Origin: a virus
Length of the DNA stretch: 64,000 nt
Reading direction: 5' to 3' (one strand)
IMG/VR virus record: IMGVR_UViG_3300046714_000544
Location: 5,169-69,168 of that record
The notes beneath the pieces are model-generated. The model made no database searches. It was not told where the DNA came from and was given only the letters and a program-made list of their open reading frames with translations. This document shows, in pieces, positions 27,781 to 60,087 of the stretch (positions are counted from its first letter, which is position 1; each line of letters opens with the position of its first letter). The position numbers and the translations under genes are program-made.

Positions 27781-28012
27781 AGAACTCCTCGCACTTCTGG
27801 TTGCTGCAATGGCGGCGCATCAGGGAGAAGCACTTGGAGCAGTTGATTGATTCACCAACCGCTGCTCGAAGATCTGCAATCATAAGGAGAAGCATCTCCT
27901 CTGCCTCCACGAATAGTGCGGCGCTGGGGTCGGTTCCAAGAATCAACGCAACTCTTTGGGCATAGGTCAACGGTGCGCCTTTTGCCATCTGTTCAAAACC
28001 CTCCCAACTCAC
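27773..28012 (-). CDS. Hypothetical protein
   Basis: GTGA overlap. Confidence 0.45.
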   Translation of the reverse strand: MSWEGFEQMAKGAPLTYAQRVALILGTDPSAALFVEAEEMLLLMIADLRAAVGESINCSKCFSLMRRHCSNQKCEEFCG

Positions 28013-28593
28013 AACCGGAACCCCAGCTTCTGCGCCTCAAGGACGCTCTCCGCAAGCCCCATTGCATCATCGAGGGCATTGTGTGTATGCGGCGTTGTCG
28101 CCATCTTACTCAGGTGTGGGAAGGACTTCGCCTTCCGGTAAACGGTGCCCACATCCGTCAGTTCATGAGCCATCGACGCGCCGTCAATGCACCCCTGTCG
28201 CCACGCCGTGTAACGTTCCTGGACGTTGATCCCCTGGAAACCGAATGGGTTGTTCCCACAGAAGCGCGAGAGGTAGTAGGCAATGTGCATCCAATCGAAG
28301 CCGGATGTGTCACTCACTAGGCGGAGGTCGTGGGGGGCGATTCCCTTCAGCCATGCATGGAAAGCAGGGAGGGCTTCCTCAGGAGGGGGGTGCCCCGCTG
28401 CCATCTCAGGAGTGAACCCGTGAATCTTGATCGTCTCCTTCTCCCAGCTGCCTTCAGGGAGCGGCTTTACCGTGGTGTAGAAGGTCCGCCCCAAGCCGGG
28501 CTCAATAACAACCGCGCCGATTGAGAGGAGGGAGTGGAAGGGTGGGGAGAGAAAGCCGCCGGTTGCTTCCACATCGACGGAGATGAGGGTCAT
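28009..28593 (-). CDS. DEDD 3'-5' exoribonuclease (Rv2179c-like)
   Basis: ISVDVEATG, LLSIGAV, GFDW, NPFGF, HNALDDA. Confidence 0.85.
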   Translation of the reverse strand: MTLISVDVEATGGFLSPPFHSLLSIGAVVIEPGLGRTFYTTVKPLPEGSWEKETIKIHGFTPEMAAGHPPPEEALPAFHAWLKGIAPHDLRLVSDTSGFDWMHIAYYLSRFCGNNPFGFQGINVQERYTAWRQGCIDGASMAHELTDVGTVYRKAKSFPHLSKMATTPHTHNALDDAMGLAESVLEAQKLGFRL

Positions 28594-31203: not shown

Positions 31204-31470
31204 TCACTTCGCACTCTTCAACTGCACAACCAGACCGTAGTTAAGTGTATGTGGTTTAGTCCAACTAGGAGGATAAATCCTAGGATGAGCTTCCTTAGTG
31301 AAATAGTCTCCATCGCACACCCCCACACAATTCCCTTTTGGATCTACTTGAGTAGGGCCGCAGCCTTCGCACAAAACCTCAGCAGCGAGGCCCTTGTTCC
31401 ATTCTTCAACAGTTGTTAATCCCACGAAATCGTCAAACTCCGGGATACATTGCTTGCAATGGTCGCTCAA
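31204..31470 (-). CDS. Cys-rich hypothetical protein
   Basis: CKQC..CEGCGPTQVD..GNC motif. Confidence 0.55.
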   Translation of the reverse strand: MSDHCKQCIPEFDDFVGLTTVEEWNKGLAAEVLCEGCGPTQVDPKGNCVGVCDGDYFTKEAHPRIYPPSWTKPHTLNYGLVVQLKSAK

Positions 31471-32642
31471 CCCTTCACACTCAGCAGCGGCCGCAGCTTC
31501 GCCACCACAGACACCAAATCCATCTGCTGCCTCATGACCACATCAATCGACTTAAAGGCCATAGGATGCTCACCCAGCATTCTCTCATCCTTCCTACAAT
31601 CAACCCCATCTGTTGCCTTCCTGAAGTCGTCGAGGGAGTAAAACTTCGCCGCCCCCTCCCTACTGATCCGCCGTCCAACTCCTGCCGCCGCACTGTGAAA
31701 CGCCCCCGTTGCCCCCTTACCACAAACAATATAAGTGGGCTTCCCCAAACCGCCGGGGATGACTCCAAGATCTCCCTTCCCTGCACGAATGGCCCCCCTT
31801 CGGAGAACGAAGACATGCTCGTTAAAGTGCCGCTCCCAGGAGACGAAGTTGTGAGGACTGTCCACAACCGTCCGCCACTTCGGCTGGAAAGGGAAGAAGG
31901 ACTCGACGATGTCCTTCACAACCTCCATGATGTTCTCCCGGTTCCAGGCTGCGTAGTCCTGGGTCCACTGGACGGCATCACGGCACGCCTGCATCTCACT
32001 GCTCCCCGAGAGGAAGGAGGCAAATTCGGGCGGGATGTGCTCGTTGTGTGGGAGCAACCGCGCCGCTGCAGTGTGGAAGGTGGAAAGAGTCTTGCCGATG
32101 TCCCGGCTCCCTGCCTGGACAACCACCCAGAGGTTCTGTCCCTCATCCTCGCATAGTTCGATGAAGTGGCCGCCGGCACCGAGGGTGCCAACCTGCCGCT
32201 GGGCACTGGCCAGGACCCGGATATCCGCCCCCTTGAGGTTGACAAAGAGGCCCCACTTCGGCCATCGACCGAGGCGGTCGATTGGCTCCGTGAATTGGAG
32301 CGTCCCCACCGGGATGCTGCTCTCGATGGCCGTCCTTAGTTCACTCACCAGGGCACTGGTGAGATCGGTGCTCTTCATCCCCAGGGTCGCGGCACGGACC
32401 CCGCACCCGATGTCATGCCCTAGGAGAGAGGGGATCAACGTCCGCCTCGTCGCCACCACCGTCCCGACCGGGCACCCAATCCCCTCCGTCGCATTTGGGA
32501 GGACGACGAGATGTTGGTAGATGTCAGGGGCGACGGAGAGTTCCTTCAGCCGCCCCCAAACTGCCTTCCCCACCTCAATCTGCGTCGCCCAATGGTGGAT
32601 CGGTACTTCCCGTCCTGTCCCGTAAGTCACCGCACTCATCAT
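31467..32642 (-). CDS. rtcB: RtcB-family RNA ligase homolog, catalytically degenerate
   Basis: DIGCG, GTLGAGGHFIE, GSR, HNF, RRGA, IPGGLG, GRRISR, P.AFK, LRPLLSVKG; the SHGAGR motif is replaced by AAGVGR. Confidence 0.9.
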   Translation of the reverse strand: MMSAVTYGTGREVPIHHWATQIEVGKAVWGRLKELSVAPDIYQHLVVLPNATEGIGCPVGTVVATRRTLIPSLLGHDIGCGVRAATLGMKSTDLTSALVSELRTAIESSIPVGTLQFTEPIDRLGRWPKWGLFVNLKGADIRVLASAQRQVGTLGAGGHFIELCEDEGQNLWVVVQAGSRDIGKTLSTFHTAAARLLPHNEHIPPEFASFLSGSSEMQACRDAVQWTQDYAAWNRENIMEVVKDIVESFFPFQPKWRTVVDSPHNFVSWERHFNEHVFVLRRGAIRAGKGDLGVIPGGLGKPTYIVCGKGATGAFHSAAAGVGRRISREGAAKFYSLDDFRKATDGVDCRKDERMLGEHPMAFKSIDVVMRQQMDLVSVVAKLRPLLSVKG

Positions 32643-32799
32643 CCGACTCCCTTTTAGGGTTGTTCTTTTAACTCTTTCAACAAAACCACAAGGTGGCGCT
32701 TGCATAGAAACAATGCGTCATTCAACGACACCACACACCAGTTGTAACAACTGTCGCATCTCTGCATTCCGCGTTCCATAGGGAACGCTACTGAGTACC

Positions 32800-33960: not shown

Positions 33961-34341
33961 TCATTGGCTGTCCGTGGTCATGTTTGGCAACCAGCCCGCG
34001 AATGGAATGTGGGTTGCAGGAACCCCTGCCGCCTTGATTTCCTCCACCATCTTCTTCGCTGCCGGCCCATTGTATGAGTGTACTACGACACAGTGTTTGA
34101 TGCAAGAAGGATTTGCGGCGATGTACCGGGCAACTGCGCCGCCGTGGTTTTCCAACTCGTAAGCAACGTAGTGCTCCCCACCGAGGTCGTGATCGAGGGA
34201 GGCGATGTCGAAGGGGCCGTGGACCTTCAGTGCGTTGATGGCCAGTGTGGCGGTGTCTACACAGAAAACATCCGCGCCTCCTGTGTTCTTCAGGAAGTGT
34301 TCGGTGCGATTGTTATCATCGTCGAGGAAGAGGATCTTCAC
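33961..34341 (-). CDS. Cyclic-phosphate-processing receiver-domain protein
   Basis: KILFLDDD..R, ASLDHDLG, G..VA, VVHSYN. Confidence 0.75.
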   Translation of the reverse strand: MKILFLDDDNNRTEHFLKNTGGADVFCVDTATLAINALKVHGPFDIASLDHDLGGEHYVAYELENHGGAVARYIAANPSCIKHCVVVHSYNGPAAKKMVEEIKAAGVPATHIPFAGWLPNMTTDSQ

Positions 34342-35366
34342 GCTGCCACCAGTTCCGGAAAATTGGCCGCCGTCAACCACTTCATCGGGCGGATCCAGGG
34401 ATCGAAGGGCGAGGCATTCTCGCACGTCTTCACGATATCGATCTCATAGGGAGTGTAGTTGGAGGAGGAGGAGTAATGACGGTTGCCTGATCCCCCCATC
34501 CCATTGCTATGAACCCCCCACATCGCCTCATACTGCGCCGCCTCATCGTCATCTGCCTGCATGGCGTCCGCGACCTTGTCGAGGATCGAGGCGACCATCT
34601 CCTTGTCCATCTTGATCATCGAGGTATCATCATACCGCGACCCGAAGATGAAGCACTTCATGCAATTAACGACCGTTGGATCTTCATCATCGATGATCAG
34701 CCGCGTGCCACAGTGCGAGGGGCAAGTCTTCCCCGCCCGATCGTTCGGATTGTACACGCTGACCTTGCTCGACTGTTTCACCTCGGGGGTGCTGTAGAGG
34801 ACCTTCCCATCCGAATCCCGATAGAGGAACCTCGCCACCTTCGAATCACACCCCACACACCAAAGCTGCGCCTCGGGGTCGTCGATGGATTGGATGAGGG
34901 ACGCGCCCTTACACCCCCCACAAGTCTCCCCGATTCGGTCAACCTTCTCCACCTTCTTCGAGGCATAGAAGCTACCTAGGGGCTTCCCTGTGTATGGGTT
35001 CAACTTACAAGCAGCACACTCAAGGACAAGAGAATCGCGGCCCTTCAACAAGACCCCAGCATCCCCGACGCAATGCGGGCACATCTCCCCTTCTTGATAC
35101 AAAGCCTTCTTCTCCTTCTTCCTCATCACCGGCTCAGACGTCACAGGATCCCTGAAACACTTGTAGCACATCAACTGCCCGTTGACCTTCGTCAGAGAGC
35201 CGTGGATGCACAGGGGGCAGTGCTCTCCTAGCTCATAGGCCGGTTTGCCGAGTTGAAAAACATCCCCGCACTCCTCACAACAAAGCTCCTCGACCCCATC
35301 CGCATTCTTCCAACTGACCAGGGTCCGGTAACGGGAACAGCTAGGACAATCCGACCCCACTGTCAA
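34338..35366 (-). CDS. Multi-zinc-ribbon repeat protein
   Basis: At least five G.xCPxC...L.CxxC repeats. Confidence 0.6.
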   Translation of the reverse strand: MTVGSDCPSCSRYRTLVSWKNADGVEELCCEECGDVFQLGKPAYELGEHCPLCIHGSLTKVNGQLMCYKCFRDPVTSEPVMRKKEKKALYQEGEMCPHCVGDAGVLLKGRDSLVLECAACKLNPYTGKPLGSFYASKKVEKVDRIGETCGGCKGASLIQSIDDPEAQLWCVGCDSKVARFLYRDSDGKVLYSTPEVKQSSKVSVYNPNDRAGKTCPSHCGTRLIIDDEDPTVVNCMKCFIFGSRYDDTSMIKMDKEMVASILDKVADAMQADDDEAAQYEAMWGVHSNGMGGSGNRHYSSSSNYTPYEIDIVKTCENASPFDPWIRPMKWLTAANFPELVAA

Positions 35367-47102: not shown

Positions 47103-47205
47103 CCAAAACAGCTTGATCCACGGATGTCGTTGACTGCTTAGGGTTTGCGGCTCTTGGATGGGGCGGATCAACCCCTCTTAAGATAAGAAGGTGCTGAGCT
47201 GCGCT
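47103..47205 (+). repeat. Copy of a ~100-bp dispersed element (also at 59339-59445 and inverted at 59625-59725)
   Basis: CCAAAACAGCTTGATC is identical to 59339-59354; GGGCGGATCAACCCCT is identical to the reverse complement of 59656-59671. Confidence 0.75.
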
Positions 47206-49636: not shown

Positions 49637-50034
49637 CCCACCTTCTCCAGGATGTGGTGCTGCTTGACGTTCGAGGGGGCGACGCGACAGATGACCTCAG
49701 GAGTGTATTCCTTCGGATACTCATCCAGACGTCGGTATTCCTGAAACCCTTGCGCCCTGAGGTCAGCCAGGCACTTTCCTACCCCCTTGTCGATACAGTC
49801 CCAGTTAACATAGGCACCGGAGACCACGAAAAGGGCCGCAGTGTAGCCAATCTCCCAACCAGCGAACGAGAGGCCGTGTTTGTATTTGGGAGAGCGGACC
49901 TGGAACTGCCAAACCTGCTGCTGCTCGTACTTATGAACGATGTCGAGTTCGGCGTCCTTCAGAAGATCCGGGCACCGTTCCTTCTTCCGCCTCTCCCACA
50001 GCCCAAGGATTACGTTACCGATGTCGAGACTCAT
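49591..50034 (-). CDS. GNAT-fold-like protein
   Basis: KGVGK..L, RVAPSN...ILEKVGW resemble GNAT motifs A/B. Confidence 0.5.
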   Translation of the reverse strand: MSLDIGNVILGLWERRKKERCPDLLKDAELDIVHKYEQQQVWQFQVRSPKYKHGLSFAGWEIGYTAALFVVSGAYVNWDCIDKGVGKCLADLRAQGFQEYRRLDEYPKEYTPEVICRVAPSNVKQHHILEKVGWKQLPGTTLWRLPV

Positions 50035-50533
50035 GACTTCTCCCCCCTGGTCAACAACACCGACGTTGACGACAACAACCGCCGGCCCCTCGCGCGGACT
50101 GCTTCCACATGACGGTCCATCGCGGTCTTGGAAGAGGGGAAGATCAGCAGTTTCCCCCTCTTCACCGCATCCTCCTTCGCAGGAGGGCAATCGGGCACAT
50201 GCATCCCCACGCTGATCTCCTCCAGGGTGCGGAGAGGGAGTCGGCAGGCGGCGGCTAGGCAGTATTCCATTTCCTCCATCTCCATCCCTTGAACTCGATG
50301 TTCATGAAGGGAAGATGAATGCGCAGTCCCCCCAGATAAGCCAGCCCGATTGTGCAGTCGCCCAGGTCGATGGTGAAGTTGACCCGCCGGCCGATCCAGC
50401 ACCAGTAAGGTAGCATGATCTTCTCCTCCCCACCTCTTATGGGTGTAGCAAAAGTCCGGCATCTCCCAAGGTGTGAAGTCTCCGTAGATGCACTTACACC
50501 TTGGGTTGGGCTGTTTACCGCAGCACCAGCAGA

Positions 50534-50917
50534 CTATGGAAGCAACTTCACAAGAGGAATCCCATTCGCGCCCGATGGGATGTAGATCTGGGTGTGATTC
50601 GGGCTCCCCGCCATCTTCTCCTGCGCGATGATCGCCTCGTGCTGGAGGTACTGATCCGTCAGGGTTGCGTTGATGATGTGCTGGGCGGCACTGATTCCCT
50701 CCGCCTCCTGCACCCTGATGGCGGCCTTCTGCTTCTCCACCTGGATCAGCTGCTCGGATTGCTTGATCTTGATCTCGTTGATCAGGACCTGATTGTTGGC
50801 GTTCTCCCGATCCTGGTAGCGGCTGTAGGAGGGGATGCCGAATGCAAGGCCACCGACGAGGACAATGATGGCCAGGACGATGAGAGTGATTGCCGGAGCG
50901 GCGCTCTCGTCCCTCAT
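50534..50917 (-). CDS. SPFH/band-7-related membrane protein
   Basis: N-terminal TM; RVQEAEGI..AQHII..TLT..YLQ..IYIPSGANGIPL. Confidence 0.65.
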   Translation of the reverse strand: MRDESAAPAITLIVLAIIVLVGGLAFGIPSYSRYQDRENANNQVLINEIKIKQSEQLIQVEKQKAAIRVQEAEGISAAQHIINATLTDQYLQHEAIIAQEKMAGSPNHTQIYIPSGANGIPLVKLLP

Positions 50918-51411
50918 GCCGCGAGCGCTTCTTTCACCAGGACCTCATACTTCGCATCCTCGGGATCGGATGGGTCGAAGGCCGAGGGCATATTCACCGT
51001 CTGGCCTGCACGAGCAAAACGGCGGAAGCCCTTCGTCTCCGGGAAGGGGTACTTCTCCAGGAACTTGACCGCCTGGTCCCACACCCGATCATTCGCCGTA
51101 TCGATCATGATGCTCCGGAGTTCCTTGAGGTAGAAGATTGGGGAGCCGGCCACGTCCGGGCAGCAGTAGCCCACGACCTTCCCGCTCGCCTTCATCTCCG
51201 CGAGCAGCTTGAGGGGGTCGACGTTGAGGACGCCGGCGAGGCCGTGCAGGGTCCAACGACGAGGCCGGCCTTTCTTGCCCGGCAACCCTCCACCGCTCGC
51301 GTAGGCGGCGGGGTTGAAGCAGCGCATCAGCTTCTCCCAACCGGGGATGGAGGACTTCTTCGACTTGGTGATGGTTCCGGCGACCGGCTTCTTCTTCTTC
51401 AACAGCGACAT
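50914..51411 (-). CDS. Hypothetical protein (possible HTH)
   Basis: WTLHGLAGVLNVDP; strong codon bias. Confidence 0.5.
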   Translation of the reverse strand: MSLLKKKKPVAGTITKSKKSSIPGWEKLMRCFNPAAYASGGGLPGKKGRPRRWTLHGLAGVLNVDPLKLLAEMKASGKVVGYCCPDVAGSPIFYLKELRSIMIDTANDRVWDQAVKFLEKYPFPETKGFRRFARAGQTVNMPSAFDPSDPEDAKYEVLVKEALAA

Positions 51412-52165
51412 TACTTGATCTCCCGATAGGTGGGCACGAGTGGAGGCAACTCGGGGCGTTGTGCCGAAACAACCCCGACGAGGGCGTAGATATAGATGGG
51501 TGTGGGATCTGTGTACACAGTGTTCTTGAGCTGTCTGCTGAGGGTATCCTTAGCAAGATTAACTGTTGTCGGTACATCCACGGCATGGCCGACAACCTGG
51601 CCATATTGGATCGCCACCCCGGTGTTGGTCACAGCGTCACCACCTCCACCCGGAAGCGGCTCTCGTGCTGCTGTTTGTGTTGGAGCACAAACTCCGAAAC
51701 TGTGCTGCATGCCGTGGTAGGTGATTTTACCGTCTCCCCTGAGTTCGGGGTGTTTCCCACAGGCGCAACCCTGCAATACCGATGACACCCGATCTCCACC
51801 TTTCTCTCCCCCTCGCTCAACGATTGCCAACGATCGGCGTCGGGGAGTTCACCCCTAAACCGCACCTGGTCATGCTCCCACTTCTTACACAGCGAACAGT
51901 AGGCGAAGTGGGACAACCCGCCGACGAGGTGATGGAAAAGGGTCACGATCGCCCTTCTCGGTGCTTTCTGATGTGACTGACTCAATTGGACTTCCCCTCT
52001 GGGGGAGTAGAAAGGGGCAGAAGGGTTGCTCTCCCTCTGCCCCATGAAATACAGTCCGATATGGGGTCCATCAGGGAAACTAAGGCCGCATCCTCTGAAA
52101 TCCTACTGATCGAAACGACTGTTTCCAGGGAGCGCCCCTGGTGGCGTTGCGGCAAAGCCGCGGGT

Positions 52166-52576
52166 TTACTTAAGCTGCTTGATCCACTCGCTGTAGGAGT
52201 CGGCCACCTTCTCCCAGTCCTGGCACGCCTCGGGCCAGCTGCCGGTGCCCTTCGGTTGGAGGGTGAAGTACCCTCCTGGACCACCGAAGTTCAGCCAAGC
52301 CCTCTGAAAGATGTCCACTGCATGCAGGGCAAGGGAGCAGACACCGGTCGGCTTGTGCCGCCAGACCTCGCCGTACTTGGGCAGGTCGGTGATCTTCTCG
52401 ACCACAAAGCAGGGGTAGGGAGCGTCCCAGCCGTACTCAACAACCTTCACCTCAGTTGGTTCGGCGATTTTCGGGTACTCCCAGCGTAGTGTGTTCTCCC
52501 CTCGTTTTGGGTACCGGTAGGCGACCAACCTCCATCCCTCCGGCACCTCGATCTCGACGGTCAGGGATTGCTTCAC
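52166..52576 (-). CDS. Hypothetical protein
   Basis: IEVPEGWRLVAYR.P..GE motif. Confidence 0.55.
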   Translation of the reverse strand: MKQSLTVEIEVPEGWRLVAYRYPKRGENTLRWEYPKIAEPTEVKVVEYGWDAPYPCFVVEKITDLPKYGEVWRHKPTGVCSLALHAVDIFQRAWLNFGGPGGYFTLQPKGTGSWPEACQDWEKVADSYSEWIKQLK

Positions 52577-53538
52577 TTCTTCATCTCCAATTTTGCGAGG
52601 ATGCCGAACAGAAGGCCCCAGGCGACAAAATCGCGCGGGGCCTTGGGATCGAGTGAGGCGATGAGGCAGAGGATGCTAATGACGTAGTAGGCGATCCCCA
52701 TCATGCCGCCACCCTCTGCTCTTCCCCGCTCTTGATGTAGGCGAAGAAGATGGACACCAGGCGGCCACCGTCCTTCTGCCTCTTCACCCTCTCGTACATC
52801 GTGGCCGTGAGGGGCTTGTCGTCCCCATCCTCCGTGTTGCTGACGACGGGTATGGCCTTTGGTTGCTTCATCTCAATCCTCCTTGTAGAGGAGAAGGAGG
52901 TCCGCCCTCACCTTCTCCTGAATTCCCGCGATCATCCTCACCGTTTCCGGCCCGTGGTGTTGGCTGTCGTGCCCGCAAAACTTCACCCGCATCAGCTGCT
53001 TGATGGCCTGGTCGGCGTTTCTCACCAGCAGTTCTCCGAGGGTGGCTCGTCTGCGCCGCCAGATGAGAAACATAGCTACGCGTCCATCCAGGCCAAGAGG
53101 TAGCCAATGATGCAGATGATCAGGGCAATGGTGCTTACAACAAGGAAGAGGGCGGCGAAGAATACAAGCATGCTCATGCCATCCTCCTGCCCTCGTACCG
53201 TGGCCGAGGTGTGGTAGTACCAGGGGACCCAGAGCCACCAGAGGAACAGAAGGATGGCTCCTAAGGACGGGAACACCACCAATCTCTTAGACTGTCGTGT
53301 CATCGAAAGTCTCCTATCATGGACGTCAAGTTGACATTGAGGGGGAAGTGTGCTAGCAGGAACAGCTAAAAAGGAGTAGCGATGGCCCCACTGCGACACT
53401 TGCAATCAGCCCTTGACCTTCTCCCAATGCCCCGACATCTCTCCCCAGACAGGCTTGATGAAGCGTTGACGAGGGCGGTTCTGCTTCCTCTCCAACCAGT
53501 GGAGCCGTGCCAGGGCGATGTTGGCCGCTCTCTGGCTC

Positions 53539-53925
53539 TCAGTCTTCGCGTTCATGATCTCTCCCCCTCAAAGATGCAGCTTGCTTTCTCAGGTGAAAGA
53601 TGCTGCATGGGTTACAACCAAGCACACCCCTGAGGCGTCCCCAAAGGCGGCAGTGTTCGTACAACCCCCCGAAATCGCCAGTGAGTCGTGTGAAGTCGGC
53701 AATCCCCGCCATCCTCCCCGCGATCCACAGGCAGATGAGTGTCCTCTCCCTTGTACCTATAAGGCTCTTATCATCCAGGAACCTGTTGAACGCTGGTGCG
53801 TAGATGCGGAGAAGGCGGAGCTGCCATTCGTAGCGAGAGGGGAAGGGCTTCTCTCCCTCACCTCTAGCGACGGCCTGGAATTCATGATACGCATTCCCGA
53901 GGTGGCGGAGGACAAGGTTTTTCAG
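53539..53925 (-). CDS. Hypothetical protein (128 aa) with CTG start, missed by the ORF track
   Basis: GAGGGGG SD; CTGA overlap with the upstream stop; the open frame MKNLVLRHLGNAYHEF... fills the gap exactly. Confidence 0.5.
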   Translation of the reverse strand: MKNLVLRHLGNAYHEFQAVARGEGEKPFPSRYEWQLRLLRIYAPAFNRFLDDKSLIGTRERTLICLWIAGRMAGIADFTRLTGDFGGLYEHCRLWGRLRGVLGCNPCSIFHLRKQAASLRGRDHERED

Positions 53926-54630
53926 CGTTCCCCCTCAATAGGCCGTCCCCGTGCGTCCTCATACGCCTTCCTCGCCGCCCGGGTTAGCGGGCTGGACATC
54001 CCATACTTCTTCCCAAGACGAATATACTCATCCCGTAACCTGTCGGTCTCCGTGGAGGCGAGCTTGAAATCGCGCGGGCTCATTGAGAGCCAGGCTGGGG
54101 GCTTGTGAGCGAAACCGCCTGAGGGCATCTCAACCTCCTATCGAACCAATGTAGAAGACCGGCGGGTAGACTTCCTTGAGCGCAAAGAGGAGGGTGCCGA
54201 CCTTCTCGCCAGGTCGTATTAGGCCAAAAGAGGCGCGGCCATTCCCGAACTCATCATAGAGTCTCTCCTCAGTCCACTCTGGATGCCCTATGAGGATGGC
54301 CATGATTTGCCAGCTGACTTTCTGCTCTATCACCTGCACTCCCAGCAAGGCTTCGACTTCAGGCAACAGGGTTGCAACTCCGGGCCGGAGAGGGTCATGT
54401 AGTTGATGGAGGATTCTTCCTTGAACTTCCTCACAGCTTCCCACCCGGCGGATAGCTGTCTATTGAGGGCGGATAGCTTTATCCGTTCCTGAAGCGAGAG
54501 CTTCGGAAGGTGGATGACGTCTGGCGCCATAATGTGTACCCCCTAAGACAACCTGTGTGGAACCGTCTCCGGTAGCGGACGGAGAAAACAATCGCCCACG
54601 GCTTGTGGCACCTGTGACAAAAACGCGGCG

Positions 54631-54885
54631 CTAGATCTCGTCGAACGGGTAGACATCCTTCACCCTCTCGTTGAAGAAGGCGGACGGGTCCTCCGTACTG
54701 GCCAGACCAATCGCAACATCCTCCGGCACATCGTAGTAGCAATACGACCTCCCGGAACGGAAGTCGATGTGAAGGTTGCCCTTCACCCAACCACTGGCGT
54801 CGTCACCCTCGGCGATGAAGAAGACCGTGTGCAGGTTGCTACTGTTGAGGGTGACTGGCCCTAGTTCGAAAATCTCCGCGGTCAT
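54631..54885 (-). CDS. KTSC-domain protein
   Basis: SSNL...LHIDFRSGRSYCYYDVP......L.S...S.FFNERVKDVY. Confidence 0.75.
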   Translation of the reverse strand: MTAEIFELGPVTLNSSNLHTVFFIAEGDDASGWVKGNLHIDFRSGRSYCYYDVPEDVAIGLASTEDPSAFFNERVKDVYPFDEI

Positions 54886-55320
54886 CGTCCACTCACTAGA
54901 TCGCCGATCAGGCCGCCGAAGTTGTTATCCAGGACCGCGATCGCGAGATAGAGAAGTCCGGCGGCGGTGAGGACTGCTAGGGTGAACCTTACGAATCTTT
55001 TCATCACTTCACCTCATCAACGCACAGAGTTGTGTTCTGGTCTGGTCTCAGGGACTGCTTGGCATCGTCCAATTCCCAAAGCGGCTGGTTACGACACGTA
55101 TAGCAGAGCGCGTTTGATGTTGCAGCCGTATCCTTGCCCGCGCAACCCTTGCACGATACTCGCCCATCCTTCAGCCTCTCCACCTCCGCCTGTAGTTCGG
55201 CGTTCTTGGCCAGCAACTCCGGGATGACGACAGAGGGGCAGGTGCTACCACAGGTAGCGTGCGGGTGACGTTGCTTGCATCCCTCCGCCGCCTCCCTCGC
55301 CCTCTCCGCTAGCGGCCTCA

Positions 55321-55698
55321 TCACTCAATGCTCCCGAAGATGGCGATCCTCCACGCCTCCTCGACGGTCAACCGCACCTGGGCCTCAGTGTCGCCGATGA
55401 TGACGGTGGCATCTTGGCCGGGGATGAGGAATTCCTCTCCGAGTCTGCGGGCGAGGAAGGCTTGGATCTCCCAAAAAGCGATTGGTTCGATGGTGAAGAG
55501 GTGGAGGGCGCTGGCGAGGGCCTCCTCAGCATCACATAATCGACATTTCTGCCCAGGTAGGGTGATCGGATCGCACCACAGGGGCCTGTTGTTCTCCGAG
55601 AGCCAGGAGGGCGGGAGGATCCGCGCGGCTTCCAGCAACATCTCCAACCCACCGCCTATGCGGCTGTCGTTGGCTGGTCCGACGAAATGTCGCGCCAT
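55321..55698 (-). CDS. Hypothetical protein
   Basis: AGGAG SD plus ATG directly after the ncRNA region. Confidence 0.5.
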   Translation of the reverse strand: MARHFVGPANDSRIGGGLEMLLEAARILPPSWLSENNRPLWCDPITLPGQKCRLCDAEEALASALHLFTIEPIAFWEIQAFLARRLGEEFLIPGQDATVIIGDTEAQVRLTVEEAWRIAIFGSIE

Positions 55699-55714
55699 CT
55701 GTTTCTCCTAGAGA

Positions 55715-56670
55715 AAGGCGTGCGGCCACCTGGCTGCCACCCCAGGATCACAGGCTCCCATAGCCTGGGTAATCGGCGCTTATACTATGGCCACGTTGGT
55801 TTGAAAGCAAGGAACAGGGTTACCCTCTTCGCTGCTTTCATATGAGAGGAGAGGGGAAGGCCGGTTCGCAAGGCCGGCATCCGAGCAGAGGGCTAAATGG
55901 GGTTTGCCCATGGCCATCCTCGTGCATTGAGGCAAATATGCTACTTCCCCCCGGACGACCCTAACGAACGTCGGAAAGAGGGCTGAGAGGATGATCCTCA
56001 GCGTTTAACACCTGGAGCATGCATCCAGTCGGGGCTATCTCCCCAACCTCTTCCCTTTACTACCTTAATCCACTATTGTGCACCACGCGACACCTCCGGG
56101 ACAGAAATCGGCCAATCGTCGGGCTTCGTTTAACCCACACCGAGTGGGCCTATACAGCCGCACGAGTTATAAGCTCGTCGCTGTTAGCTGGAGTCTTTAC
56201 ACCCGCGGCTCCCGGTGCCAGTGTGGGTACGCGCCTGGCTCGCGGTTAGCTTCTCGACACCCACTGTGAGCTAACAGACCTCCTGTTTCGCTTAGGTAGA
56301 ACGCGCTAACGACCCCAGACAGACTAGGGAGGTTTAACAAGCCTTCCCCTTCTTCACACGAAGATCACTCCGTGTTACGCTAGCACTTCGAAGATCACCT
56401 GCGGGCGATCCGTGCCCCATCCGCCGGTCTGTCAGCGGCGTAGAGTTGTTTTACCTCGGAAGAACGAGACAGCCGCAGTCACGACCTACGCGGCGCGCGC
56501 CTGATCAGCGTAGTGGGCTAAGCACCATGCCAATCCGGGACCTCCCCGCCTCGCGGTTAGGGGATGTCTCTCAAAATGGGGGCACGCCTGAAGGCAGTCC
56601 GGGCTCATCCTTGCAGATGAAGCAATCGGCCTCTCGCCTTCTATCGTAGGACGTGCGGCTGCGCTATAGC
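55715..56670 (-). ncRNA. Putative large structured non-coding RNA (~950 nt)
   Basis: No convincing minus-strand ORF in an otherwise packed arm; many hairpins and a long-range helix; G-U pairs mostly favour the minus strand. Confidence 0.55.
55721..55794 (-). ncRNA. tRNA-like cloverleaf (degenerate, TGG at the anticodon position)
   Basis: GTGGCCA/TGGCCGC acceptor, GTA/TAC D-stem, CAGGC-TATGGGA-GCCTG arm, CCTGG-GGTGGCAG-CCAGG T-arm; 74 nt; non-canonical loops. Confidence 0.6.
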
Positions 56671-57345
56671 TTCAGCCCCGTAGGCCGATGAGTTCGTTGT
56701 GCTCCTTGACCAAAAGGCGCGCAACATCTTCGGAGAGTCCCCCTACAACGATGCCGTGGGATTTCTGGCCATAGATCCAGTAGCCGTAGCCCAAAGCCTC
56801 ACAGTACCACATTTCCCGGGCCAAGGATTCACTCATGGCTTCTCCATAGCTGGTTAAAAAATGCGGCAGTTGGTGTAGACGAAACCCGAGTACACCGTTT
56901 GCCAACGCCAGAACGCTTGAAAGCCAGGTGCCCCATCGAAGACAATGATGTCTCCGTTATCGAAGACGTGAGCCATGGCTTCTCCTTGTAAGTTGTTGAT
57001 GGGGAAGGACTTAGACGGCTTCCTTACGCGCAATCTTCTCCGCGTCGTAAGCCCTATTGAACTGCCATTCCGCCCACTCCTGCAGAGAGAGGTAGAAGGA
57101 TGAGGGCAAGCGCTCGCCGCTGAGAGTCCAGTTGAAAAACTCATCCAGACACTTTCTGAAATCGTCCTTCGTAATCCTTGGATCGGGCATGAGCGGATAC
57201 CTCCGAGCGCCGTCCGTTTGGCGCGGAAATGGCAAAAGATCCGACAGCCTTGCGGCTTCGGATCCTTGAACGTCGGTAGACTGTTCGTGTCAGTCTATCT
57301 CAACCTATCCAGTCCCCTAAGTACTCTCACGCTTGACCGGCCGTC

Positions 57346-58347
57346 CTAGGCCGCTTGCTCCGTTGCTTCCGGCATGCCATCGTCCGTTGCCTGCGCCGCC
57401 GCCGCTGCTTCGTCGCCCGGAACGGGAGTGCTGTCCGTCTTGGGCGCGTCTTCCGTCTTCTTCTTGGCCGTCTTCTTCATCTCCGCGATCACGACAAGGG
57501 CCGTTGCGACGCCTTGCTTGGCACATTGCGGGCAAATCGGCCGTCCCATGAGGATGTTGCCCTCGGGGTCCGTCACGGCCATGATGCTGTCGGCTGAGGT
57601 AAGGCCGGTCGCCGTCTCGCTACTTGTGAGGATCTTGAGGTGCTTCTTGTAGGCGTCGTTCTCAGGGTCCGTCACGTGACCTGCGCAACCAACTGTGACT
57701 CGCTGATTGCCCTTGCCGTGGAAACCCACGCGCAAGGCGTTCATGTCAAAGTCCGGCGCTCCGATGCCGGCCATCGCGTTCCACAAGTCGGCGTATATCG
57801 TGCGTCCAGAATCGGCGGAGTAGACGTTGCTCGCGTTTTCGACCTTGGACAATCCGTGCTCTTTGGCCGATTCGGGCAACGCCTTGATCGCGTCCTTGCT
57901 CTCGCCGGCCGCGATGCGGAGTGCGGCGTGCGCCAAGGTTGCGAACCATCGCATCGGATCATTCCCGAGTACGACGGGGTTGACCTTGATGACGCGAGCG
58001 CCGTTGAACGTGAGGCCAAGCCCTTTCGCGTCGGGGCTTTCGGACGCGGTGCCGTTCGGTGGAATGAAGTAACCGCGCGGCTTGAACGTAACCTCTTTCG
58101 TCGTCGCGTCGGCCACCTTGGTTCCGTCCTGATACGCATACTTGACCGACGTTGCGCTCAGGTCAGGCGCCAGGATGACGGCTACCTTGCCGATGTTAAC
58201 GCCCAGTGTTGCGATGACGGCTTTCAGGGTGTCTTCGGCGTACAACTGAACGTCCGCGATGGTTTGCACCGCATACGTTCCCATCTTCTTGAGTTTGGCC
58301 GGGAGCGTCTTCGTCGGCCTCTCGACCGTCGTTGTTTGGTTCGTCAT
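57346..58347 (-). CDS. First early gene; degenerate SprT-like protein with zinc ribbon
   Basis: IKVNP..L...WFATLAHAALR (HExxH position degenerate); C-terminal VGC...ICPQC; strongly biased codons. Confidence 0.5.
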   Translation of the reverse strand: MTNQTTTVERPTKTLPAKLKKMGTYAVQTIADVQLYAEDTLKAVIATLGVNIGKVAVILAPDLSATSVKYAYQDGTKVADATTKEVTFKPRGYFIPPNGTASESPDAKGLGLTFNGARVIKVNPVVLGNDPMRWFATLAHAALRIAAGESKDAIKALPESAKEHGLSKVENASNVYSADSGRTIYADLWNAMAGIGAPDFDMNALRVGFHGKGNQRVTVGCAGHVTDPENDAYKKHLKILTSSETATGLTSADSIMAVTDPEGNILMGRPICPQCAKQGVATALVVIAEMKKTAKKKTEDAPKTDSTPVPGDEAAAAAQATDDGMPEATEQAA

Positions 58348-58742
58348 GTCTCTCTCGCTTCTGCCCCGTAGGGCCGTCTGTACAGAAAACCCCGTAACTT
58401 GTTGACAATCCCGGAATTGGGAAAGTCAATCAGTTACAGCCGTTCGTCCGTAAGTCGTTGAATCGAGAGTACTTAGGGGATGACGGACACTCCGTTGGCC
58501 GGCGCGAAACCGGTGCGCGAGTGGACGTCTGGATAGGTTGAGAAAGAGCGACACCTTTCCACGCGCTAGGCTTAAAACCGGTGGACCCCCGGCGGGCGCT
58601 AGACACGTGCGGCCGGTATACTGGCCAGAGCACGGGAGCGATGCTACATCTAGGTAGAAGATACGCCCCGAGGGCCGTCCTGTCCAGTCCCGATAGGCAA
58701 CATAGTGCACAATCGAACATGAAACGTTTTCATGGATAGGGC

Positions 58743-59210
58743 TGGCATGATTATTGCAGGTGATGTAAAAAGATGTGAAAGGGTTCGCCTTTCATTCGCC
58801 CCACTTGGCATGACAATTGATATGCCAACCATTGGCACATTCCTTGCTACCCTGCAATCGGCGTGCCACGGGAAAAAATGCCGGCACTCAAAGGGCGTGC
58901 CAGGGAAATTTGCCCGATTTGCTGGCACGAGAAAGTGAGAGCAAGAACCGTGCCAGAAATGGTGCAGGATGTTGCACTTCGTTAACAAACTTTTACAACC
59001 GTTGGCTGGCACGATTGTTGCTAGGATGTAAAAAGATGTTAACTGATCAGCACTTACAGCCCATGGGCAAGAAGCGTGCCAACTGCTGGCATGAAGATTG
59101 CTAGCATGCAAAAGAGGTGCCACCCCGCGCCTGCAATAGGTGTGCCAGCGGTAAGTCCTTTAGAATGAGTAGCTTACCTCGTTGGTTGGTTGTCTGCAAG
59201 GGTCGTGCCA
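58743..59210. promoter_or_regulatory. Array of sigma54 (RpoN) -24/-12 consensus sites in both orientations
   Basis: Ten TGGCAY-N5-TTGC matches (4 on +, 6 on -) plus 3-4 near matches. Confidence 0.85.
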
Positions 59211-59338
59211 ACTTTGTAGGGGGTTAGGGGGTGAGTGAAGGCAATTTTATTTTTCAAATTCTGGGGAATGGCCCCAAAAACCAATCCCTGTAAGTTGTTG
59301 AAAACCGCGAAATTTCGACTTTCAAAAAGGCCAAAATC

Positions 59339-59725
59339 CCAAAACAGCTTGATCTGTGGAAGTTGTTGAAAACAAAGGAGTTGCGGCGGCCAAAGGCCGC
59401 GGGTCAACCCTATATAGTATATATTGCTCTGACCTGACCTGAGGTAGAACAGCCAAGGGGGACTAAGCGCGGGGCGGTTTTTCTGCCCCAGAGACGTTGA
59501 GAGGTTCCCCCTAGAGCAGCTTAGGTGGTCGTTCGGGTGCGCTACCTCGGGCTGCTCCCAATGCAGCCGTGTAGGCCTATAACAGATAGGTCATATGTTG
59601 TTGTCCCAGAGGTTTTAGGCCTCTGTTAGATCAGGTCAGCTTAAATGATATTAATAGGGGTTGATCCGCCCGGTTTTCGGGTGGTAGCAACCCATGGAAT
59701 CAACAACTTAGACAGATCAAGGGGG
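59339..59725. repeat. Imperfect ~100-bp inverted repeat with AT-rich cores and IHF-like sites (possible origin or packaging site)
   Basis: CTTGATCTGT..AAGTTGTTGA..GG(G/A)TCAACCC.TAT..CTGACCTGA at 59348-59438 and inverted at 59630-59721; AATCAACAACTTA at 59698-59710. Confidence 0.7.
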
Positions 59726-59762
59726 GTGCGGCTTTTTGATGGGAACAAAATCCACCAGCAAC

Positions 59763-59792
59763 TTGATTAGAATCAGTGAAATGTGCTATAAT
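59763..59792 (+). promoter_or_regulatory. sigma70-type promoter for the terminase operon (TTGATT-18-TATAAT, TGn extension)
   Basis: TGC-TATAAT upstream of the first rightward gene. Confidence 0.55.
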
Positions 59793-59835
59793 ATGTGCAG
59801 TAAGTGGCCCCGATGGGGGCGGAAAGGTGGCTTGA

Positions 59836-60087
59836 TTGCTCGGTTTTGGTGATGGGACGGCGTTGGACAGGATCGCAGATGCTCTAGAAGACCTCGTAAA
59901 GCTCCAAATTGCCTCTCAGGGCGGTTCTGCGAGGGTAGGACGGCTGAAGACCCTACAGATGGATGAAAACAGCCCTGAGGAGCCCTCAGTGAGCTACACA
60001 GACGACGCTGCGGACGTCAAAAGGGAGGCACTTGAGGACGAACAGCGCCTTTTGAAGCTCTATGGAGGCCGCCGTGGGGGTCGTTGA
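59836..60087 (+). CDS. Hypothetical protein
   Basis: LDRIADALE motif; AAGGTGG SD. Confidence 0.55.
   Translation: MLGFGDGTALDRIADALEDLVKLQIASQGGSARVGRLKTLQMDENSPEEPSVSYTDDAADVKREALEDEQRLLKLYGGRRGGR

Follow-up and report, generated by a model that had tools for sequence, protein, structure and literature searches.

The window analysed here is a 64,000-nucleotide stretch of phage DNA that corresponds to bases 5169-69168 of a 69,168-bp virus record, which carries direct terminal repeats and is rated complete. Near-identical DNA is contained in ten sequencing runs from soil or rhizosphere. The structural genes and the terminase, which shares 24% identity with that of the closest cultured phage, are read rightward, and a long block of genes is read leftward. 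At the locus under study the following features are found, in window coordinates:

55321..55698, minus strand: orphan gene of 125 aa with a positive codon score, directly downstream of the element
55696..55711, minus strand: ribosome-binding site AGGAGA (55706-55711) and ATG (55696-55698), 22 nt after the element
55721..55794, minus strand: cloverleaf-shaped element of 74 nt, seen in the sequence, in a cloverleaf scan and with ARAGORN at -ps90
55788-55794 with 55722-55728, minus strand: acceptor-like helix of the element, 7 bp including one G-U
55769-55785, minus strand: 'D arm', 3-bp stem with the 11-nt loop UAAGCGCCGAU
55751-55767, minus strand: 'anticodon arm', 5-bp stem with the 7-nt loop UAUGGGA, TGG at 55758-55760
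55729-55746, minus strand: 'T arm', 5-bp stem with the 8-nt loop GGUGGCAG
55721, minus strand: unpaired A after the closing helix, read from the sequence
55722..56671, minus strand: stretch of about 950 nt without coding signal, judged by stops in all frames and by codon usage
55802..55840, minus strand: 39-nt hairpin of 16 pairs with three 1x1 mismatches and a 3-nt loop (inverted repeat I1)
55855..55882, minus strand: smaller GC hairpin followed by the CU-rich tract CCUUCCCCUCUCCUCUC, dG -10.9 kcal/mol, z = -1.6, not significant
56672..56836, minus strand: gene of 54 aa with its ATG at 56834-56836 after GGAGAA, from the sequence and the ORF list, with a weakly positive codon score
57232..57267, minus strand: terminator-like hairpin followed by UUUUGCC, dG -20.8 kcal/mol, z = -4.5, matched in stability by 0 of 200 shuffles (inverted repeat I23)

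The element lies on the strand of all neighbouring genes and marks, on the 3' side, the limit of the longest segment of the window that lacks coding signal, a segment that starts where the 54-aa gene, for which no family was found, comes to its end. Upstream lie a 333-aa orphan gene, which is the first of the leftward block and is followed by the terminator-like hairpin at 57232..57267, and three tiny genes with good ribosome-binding sites. Across the stretch of about 950 nt, TAA, TAG and TGA occur in each of the six frames, and the codon-usage score is positive in none of them but positive in the flanking genes. A recoded gene was rejected because all three stop codons are present in all six frames. 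When 981 nt were folded, a z of -2.4 was obtained for the minus strand and of -1.85 for the plus strand, with 20 shuffles each, and no Rfam family matches the stretch at E<=10. It is conceivable that the element is simply the end of a small gene, since a frame of 43 codons opens with the ATG at 55911, 6 nt after a GAGG that resembles a ribosome-binding site, and closes with the stop TAA at 55780-55782 inside the 'D arm'. However, the codon-usage score is negative over 55725-55950, the frame passes through the 39-nt hairpin and it covers just 15 nt of the element, and we regard such a gene as highly improbable.

The single local structure that is significant beyond doubt is the 39-nt hairpin, whose predicted dG of -20.9 kcal/mol (z = -6.0) was reached by none of 200 shuffles. 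It is placed 7 nt 5' of the element, with the smaller GC hairpin upstream of it, and no U-tract follows it. On the minus strand, z-scores of windows moved across 55720-55919 range from -2.6 to -3.9, the value of -3.9 belonging to 55800-55919. A small hairpin that spans the AGGAGA binding site is no more stable than chance would make it (z = -0.09). An intrinsic terminator was rejected as an explanation, as the terminator scan does not report one and the helix is followed by ACGCCUUUCUCU and not by a U-tract.

The minus-strand letters from 55794 to 55721 that had been quoted in an earlier note on this DNA match the sequence exactly, and the tRNA geometry described there is borne out: the 74 nt hold stems of 7, 3, 5 and 5 bp with zero mismatches and a variable region of 4 nt. 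The unpaired linkers amount to 2 nt before the D arm, 1 nt before the anticodon arm and 4 nt before the T arm. The same note had pointed to an A at position 33 and to the lack of an encoded CCA, both of which we also see, the 3' end reading A-CGCC. Compared with a canonical tRNA (RF00005), the element shares stem lengths and spacing, the unpaired A after the helix (A73) and several semi-invariant positions that can be read off the sequence, namely U8, G10, A14, A15 with U48, Y32, R37 and the G53-C61 pair. In contrast, its D stem is one pair short (3 instead of 4 bp), its T loop is one nucleotide too long (8 instead of 7 nt), and the letters on which a tRNA elbow depends for its consensus are gone. 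T54, psi55, C56 and A58 of the T loop are absent, with G standing at the positions of T54, psi55 and A58 in GGUGGCAG, and so are G18 and G19 of the D loop, position 19 in UAAGCGCCGAU being C. An attP core that shares the 3' half of a host tRNA was likewise considered and rejected, because the T loop is not canonical.

How unusual this geometry is can be gauged from a cloverleaf scan of our own, run over both strands of the 69,168-bp genome, in which the element is the only mismatch-free cloverleaf with tRNA spacing. The same single cloverleaf is returned from the whole genome when a wider range of loop lengths is allowed. Among dinucleotide-shuffled genomes, a mismatch-free cloverleaf arose in 2 of 120 and, with the wider geometry, in 1 of 60 (3 of 180 altogether). 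With one mismatch allowed, shuffled genomes contain about two cloverleaves each, and the real genome has the candidate alone, in two registers. The clean cloverleaf geometry is real and uncommon, arising by chance in about 2% of genomes, a rate that refers to scan criteria chosen after the candidate had been seen. Over a large scan, a chance rate of about 2% per genome would still imply many accidental cases. A repeat search found neither a second copy of the element nor a template/variable repeat pair.

Programs that recognize tRNAs do not accept the element. With default settings, ARAGORN reports neither a tRNA nor a tmRNA in the window or in the genome, and a tmRNA was rejected on this ground. 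Only at lowered thresholds (-ps90) does ARAGORN return the element, with a score of 94.5, in keeping with the low or pseudogene-like score that had been anticipated for it. Shuffled genomes contain on average 0.27 matches that score 94.5 or more, and at least one such match is present in 7 of 30. Rfam gave no match at gathering scores and, at E<=10, nothing tRNA-like in 5.5 kb, in 1.1 kb or in 116 nt alone; RF00005 by itself has no match at E<=10 on the whole genome, and as a control it matched in 14 of 14 genomes. We also trained a covariance model of our own (R2) on 27 genuine tRNAs taken from other phage contigs, and it scores 40 matches to real phage tRNAs at 23-75.6 bits. When the full window was scanned with R2 and all filters were switched off, the best that the element received was 7.9 bits (E = 7) at 55731-55809, in a shifted register, and this match ranks 11th of 16 among the background-level matches in the window. 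The element is not a tRNA gene, nor a recognizably decayed one, and its resemblance to tRNA is confined to how long its stems are and how they are spaced.

Weak ARAGORN matches (score of at least 89) number seven in the genome, and three of these (94.5, 90.1 and 89.0) are on the minus strand of the 1 kb around the element. When this 1 kb was shuffled 600 times, 586 shuffles had no match, 13 had one, one had two and none had three, and none reached 94.5. Such clustering would fit a decayed tRNA island, in which the element is what remains of a tRNA gene of the phage, such as tRNA-Pro(UGG), after the loss of its T loop, its D loop and U33. Phages with related terminases do carry a real tRNA-Met, which ARAGORN finds 6 times in 49 close loci, or in 4 distinct contigs once it is considered that two of the pairs look like the same contig in two collections. 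Moreover, the loop UAUGGGA is close to what we take to be the tRNA-Pro-type pattern, from which position 33 would be the sole departure. However, all 20 pairs are intact and every one of the most conserved loop letters is gone, whereas decay should cost stems at least as fast as loops. The weak R2 score and the silence of RF00005 also speak against a relic, as do the other two ARAGORN sites in the 1 kb, which have mismatched acceptor stems and are not seen by R2 at E<=10. For this reason we read the cluster not as a tRNA island; rather, as far as such predictions go, it suggests that RNA from the minus strand of this 1 kb is branched, and descent from a tRNA gene appears very unlikely.

The earlier note had proposed that the D loop and the T loop have apparently exchanged their elbow motifs and remain complementary with reversed polarity. 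The consensus letters of both loops are indeed gone. The complementarity is not confirmed, as the two loops form 3 Watson-Crick pairs, or 4 with one G-U, and an equal or greater amount of pairing is obtained in 57% and 55% of shuffled loops and in 53% and 43% of random loops drawn at genome composition. Loop-loop complementarity is no evidence of design. Since the swapped elbow was the sole argument given for the element being maintained, that argument falls to chance level with it.

Folding energies tell little about whether the cloverleaf forms. The 74 nt alone have a fold z of -1.0, with 29 of 200 shuffles as stable, and z is -1.06 in 241 nt of context. In the base-pairing ensemble of the 74 nt alone, the closing helix has a probability of about 1.0 and the anticodon-like hairpin one of 0.36-0.70, and the T-like hairpin is at 0.01-0.08 and the 3-bp D stem at 0. 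The favoured fold is a rod in which the middle hairpin is lengthened by pairing of GAUUAC with GUGAUC. The strict cloverleaf lies 5.2 kcal/mol above the minimum-energy fold, and the best fold that keeps the three main cloverleaf helices lies 3.3 kcal/mol above it. For 35 real phage tRNAs the corresponding gap between cloverleaf and minimum has a median of 1.9 kcal/mol and is at least 5 kcal/mol in 12 of the 35; the gap of the element is within this range, so energy neither favours nor excludes the cloverleaf. In the minimum-energy folds of 241 nt and 981 nt, the closing helix is lost to other pairings.

Relatives of the locus were sought by several routes. A blastn search with 54800-57400 against phage records gave no match, and neither did locus searches in viral contigs seeded with the 125-aa protein, the 333-aa protein and the terminase, a search of metagenome and viral contigs with a two-sequence alignment of the 125-aa protein, or tblastn of the 333-aa protein against phages. 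Neither the 125-aa nor the 333-aa protein belongs to a Pfam or PHROG family. A search of 5.8 billion clusters and 1.84 billion representatives gave a single other relative of the 125-aa protein, P0002, at 49-55% identity. For the 333-aa protein no relative was found. P0002 is encoded on an assembly contig of 3.9 kb, and the Atlas look-alikes of the 125-aa protein are uninformative. A terminase alignment of 33 sequences was used to gather 159 distant loci, where the 283-aa gene adjoining the terminase is the sole one shared. The non-coding stretch and the region 50000-60060, compared with these 159 loci by blastn, nhmmer and tblastx, returned nothing but one 70-nt match elsewhere. A single-sequence structure model of the element (R1), run over 44 of the sources of these loci, matched only itself. 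A pattern made of the anticodon loop, the variable region and the T loop had 1 viral and 4 genome matches, all devoid of the stems and about as many as chance would give, while a pattern of the D and T loops had 0 matches in a scan of the collections and an exact search with a 27-mer also 0. In four of the soil runs (X5-X8), all pieces that fit the element region are identical to it in every letter, with 0 differences, so these runs offer no variants from which covariation could be read. As no homologue turned up in the collections searched, there is neither covariation nor a sign of maintenance. The element is an orphan: one clean, possibly accidental cloverleaf in a distant phage lineage, and at most an unproven RNA structure.

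It is possible, if somewhat less likely than the scenario favoured below, that the cloverleaf is accidental, which is to say that an ordinary GC-rich spacer or leader contains coincidental stems that were picked out by eye and have no function of their own. The rate at which shuffled genomes reach the ARAGORN score of the element, the shifted and low-ranking R2 match, the fold z of about -1.0, loop complementarity at chance level, the want of homologues and the two or so cloverleaves per shuffled genome once a mismatch is tolerated are all what such a coincidence would produce. Set against this are the mismatch-free cloverleaf in merely 3 of 180 shuffled genomes and the fact that none of the 600 local shuffles attains 94.5. 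Furthermore, the element is situated in non-coding sequence, which makes up a few percent of the genome, on the sense strand and beside the z = -6 hairpin.

A more appealing scenario, which we favour tentatively, is that the element is a real cis-acting structured RNA junction that serves processing or stability ahead of the 125-aa gene. In this scenario a closing helix of 7-8 bp would enclose two or three hairpins, and the element together with the 39-nt hairpin would make up a structured junction between a non-coding RNA and the downstream message. We infer that the leftward transcript runs through the locus and folds in this manner in the cell, where a host endonuclease may cut it within these helices or next to them. 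The 39-nt hairpin, long and nearly perfect, resembles an RNase III-type substrate and could be the site of such a cut, whereupon the closed helix would protect from decay either the new 5' end of the message for the 125-aa gene or the RNA upstream at its 3' end, with a possible effect on expression of the downstream gene. Phage early transcripts of the T7 type carry intercistronic RNase III processing hairpins, which are stable and irregular and separate genes that are transcribed as one unit. In shape the hairpin of 39 nt (55802-55840) fits this pattern and the element directly adjoins it, but the element itself is branched and not a single long hairpin.

Several observations argue for such a junction: the element is the sole mismatch-free cloverleaf in its genome, a result seen in so few shuffled genomes; its closing helix forms with a probability near 1.0 in the 74 nt alone; the gap of 3.3 kcal/mol is inside the range of the 35 real phage tRNAs; it shares the strand of its neighbours and borders the longest stretch without coding signal; the hairpin of z = -6.0 is only 7 nt upstream, in windows of z = -2.6 to -3.9; and the three clustered ARAGORN matches have no equal in 600 shuffles. 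However, the junction is disfavoured by the lack of a homologue and by z-scores of -1.0 alone and -1.06 in 241 nt, by the replacement of the closing helix in longer folds, by the diffuse ensemble of the 74 nt, and by criteria that were set post hoc and carry a chance rate of 2% per genome.

The phage also encodes proteins that could be thought to act on such an RNA. An RtcB-family protein is encoded at 31467-32705 of the window (PF01139, E = 2e-75), 24 kb from the element, and near this gene are those for a protein with a cREC_REC domain and for an RNase T-like exonuclease. In an alignment to Pyrococcus horikoshii RtcB, the residues D95, C98, H203 and H329 are retained, while H234 is replaced by Gln, N202 by Gly and the nucleophile His404 by Ala, the roles of these residues as metal ligands and nucleophile being those given in PMC9745838. 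The premise of the earlier note, a dead RtcB, holds in the alignment as far as an altered catalytic site goes, and it is plausible that the protein does not function as an ordinary RtcB ligase. The same note suggested that the element could be a decoy for an anticodon nuclease, here one of the host, or an RNA ligand of the altered RtcB-like protein. The presence of the three proteins and the retention of four metal ligands beside the changes at H234 and His404 are compatible with such a role. However, nothing ties the RtcB-like gene to the element, the phage has neither a Ro60/TROVE gene (PF05731, none at E<=1, with the control matched in 2 genomes) nor a CCA-adding enzyme gene that we could find, and with A33 and without a T loop the element would be a poor copy of a real tRNA substrate. 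A decoy or ligand therefore seems very improbable, and even when it is taken together with a tRNA relic and a small gene, the three remain an improbable group.

A bacterial precedent for a tRNA-like RNA in such company exists in YrlA, a Y-RNA-like RNA with a tRNA-like domain that is encoded with Ro60 (Rsr) and RtcB and that retains canonical T and D loops. What the phage shares with YrlA is the presence, in one genome, of an RtcB-family gene and a non-coding module shaped like a tRNA. It differs in that a TROVE/Ro60 gene and an Rfam match are missing, in that the loops of the element are non-canonical and in the distance of 24 kb to the RtcB-like gene.

It is also possible that the element is a true tRNA mimic, L-shaped, which would be cut by host RNase P at the 5' side and at the 3' side by RNase Z or a different enzyme, freeing an RNA of about 950 nt and the message downstream. 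This idea stays alive because clean geometry is rare and because the element occupies the 3' end of a non-coding stretch on the strand that would be transcribed. The spacing is exactly that of a tRNA, with a stack of 7 bp and 5 bp, an anticodon-like loop of 7 nt and a variable region of 4 nt, and several semi-invariant positions are kept. However, the loop GGUGGCAG has no T-loop consensus, C stands at position 19 and U33 is absent, the substitute elbow pairing is at chance, the T-like hairpin has a probability of 0.08 at best, every tRNA model fails, and the 950 nt upstream have no Rfam family and a z of only -2.4 on 20 shuffles. We consider a mimic of this kind unlikely.

The arrangement it would imply is known from eukaryotes, where the 3' end of MALAT1 is a tRNA-like module (mascRNA) that releases the long RNA; modules of the mascRNA type are conserved and are cut by RNase P and RNase Z. 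The likeness is one of position only, in that a cloverleaf shape closes off a long non-coding stretch on its 3' side, and in such a role a deviant anticodon loop would be tolerated. Unlike these modules, the element lacks the T loop that RNase P reads. Should the cloverleaf be real and processed, it would indicate that phages can use modules of tRNA shape to punctuate long non-coding transcripts and that a tRNA shape is recognizable without the canonical elbow, which would bear on how RNase P reads its substrates and on what large phage RNAs do. As they stand, neither the tRNA mimic nor the swapped elbow should be carried forward, and in this respect the practical value of the present report is negative.

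A broader version of the idea takes in the whole non-coding stretch. According to the literature on GOLLD and ROOL, these large phage RNAs are often near tRNA islands, and tRNAs sometimes lie in the linker region of GOLLD. The locus resembles them in its phage context, in a non-coding stretch of several hundred nucleotides and in a tRNA-shaped sequence that adjoins it, but the neighbouring 'tRNA' is not a real tRNA. No Rfam family matches over the stretch at gathering score or at E<=10, and the ROOL model RF03087, which is without a match here, is silent in all control genomes in the same search. The stretch of about 950 nt might be a new large non-coding RNA of phages, its 3' end set by a module that has the shape of a tRNA but is non-canonical, and that is read by host RNase P/Z or by the phage's altered RNA-repair set of the RtcB type despite the missing standard elbow. 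We hold this to be quite unlikely; if it were true, the locus would represent the MALAT1-mascRNA arrangement in a phage and would show a tRNA fold with a different elbow. As a minor observation, a direct repeat, GCCGCACG (D1), is present at both edges of the non-coding stretch, which is within chance for 8-mers.

No other stretch lacking coding signal in the window is as long as the roughly 950 nt at 55722-56671 (minus strand). This stretch matches none of the Rfam families and may be an unknown large RNA. Three weak ARAGORN matches lie on one strand of this stretch, and three such matches were obtained in none of 600 shuffled sequences. A 10-bp long-range helix is predicted within it, pairing CAGCCGCACG (56652-56661) with its complement at 56155-56164 (minus strand). 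The stretch also holds a pronounced local structure close to the cloverleaf:

55802-55840, minus strand: near-perfect 39-nt hairpin, z = -6.0

This hairpin has no U-tract. Ahead of it lies a CU-rich tract (55841-55859, minus strand), which could pair either with the purine-rich arm of the hairpin or with the AGGAGA ribosome-binding site of the next gene downstream.

No tRNA was detectable in the studied phage. In phages whose terminases are related, a real tRNA-Met is located immediately upstream of the small-terminase-like gene. In tRNA islands of distant phage contigs (L numbers denote loci gathered by terminase alignment), our tRNA covariance model R2, built from 27 real tRNAs of other phage contigs, gave five further tRNA-like matches of 23-40 bits that ARAGORN at default settings did not call.

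tRNA-Met: L008 1225-1300; L009 264-338; L016 668-742; L098 342-416
Further R2 tRNA-like matches: L081 5358-5424, 5529-5606, 5697-5768 and 7235-7308; L050 5170-5243

Elsewhere in the window, an RtcB-family gene lies near genes for a protein with a cREC_REC domain, the cyclic-phosphate processing receiver domain, and for an exonuclease:

31467-32705, minus strand: RtcB-family protein
33961-34425, minus strand: cREC_REC domain protein
28009-28593, minus strand: RNase T-like exonuclease

The RtcB-family protein retains the metal ligands D95, C98, H203 and H329 (P. horikoshii numbering), with H234 replaced by Gln and N202 by Gly. The position of the nucleophile, His404, is occupied by Ala, and one His is found four residues before it. 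Taken together, these three proteins resemble an RNA-repair-type module whose ligase is altered.

Directly after the orphan 333-aa gene, the first of the leftward block, lies another hairpin:

57232-57267, minus strand: strong terminator-like hairpin followed by UUUUGCC, z = -4.5

Promoter-like sites are located upstream, also on the minus strand (58750-58779 and 59014-59042). The sole nucleotide similarity between the 50-60 kb region of the phage and the 159 related loci (70 nt, 76% identity) joins 59143-59210 to L004 1495-1563, in both phages within an ORF-poor stretch upstream of the terminase-adjacent 283-aa gene, and may mark a packaging or regulatory site. Apart from 55722-56671, two further stretches without coding signal are connected by two repeats: a direct repeat of 49 nt with 76% identity (47103-47151 and 59339-59387) and an inverted one of 24 nt that is 92% complementary (47161-47184 and 59648-59671). 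It is possible that these repeats represent shared promoters or operators.
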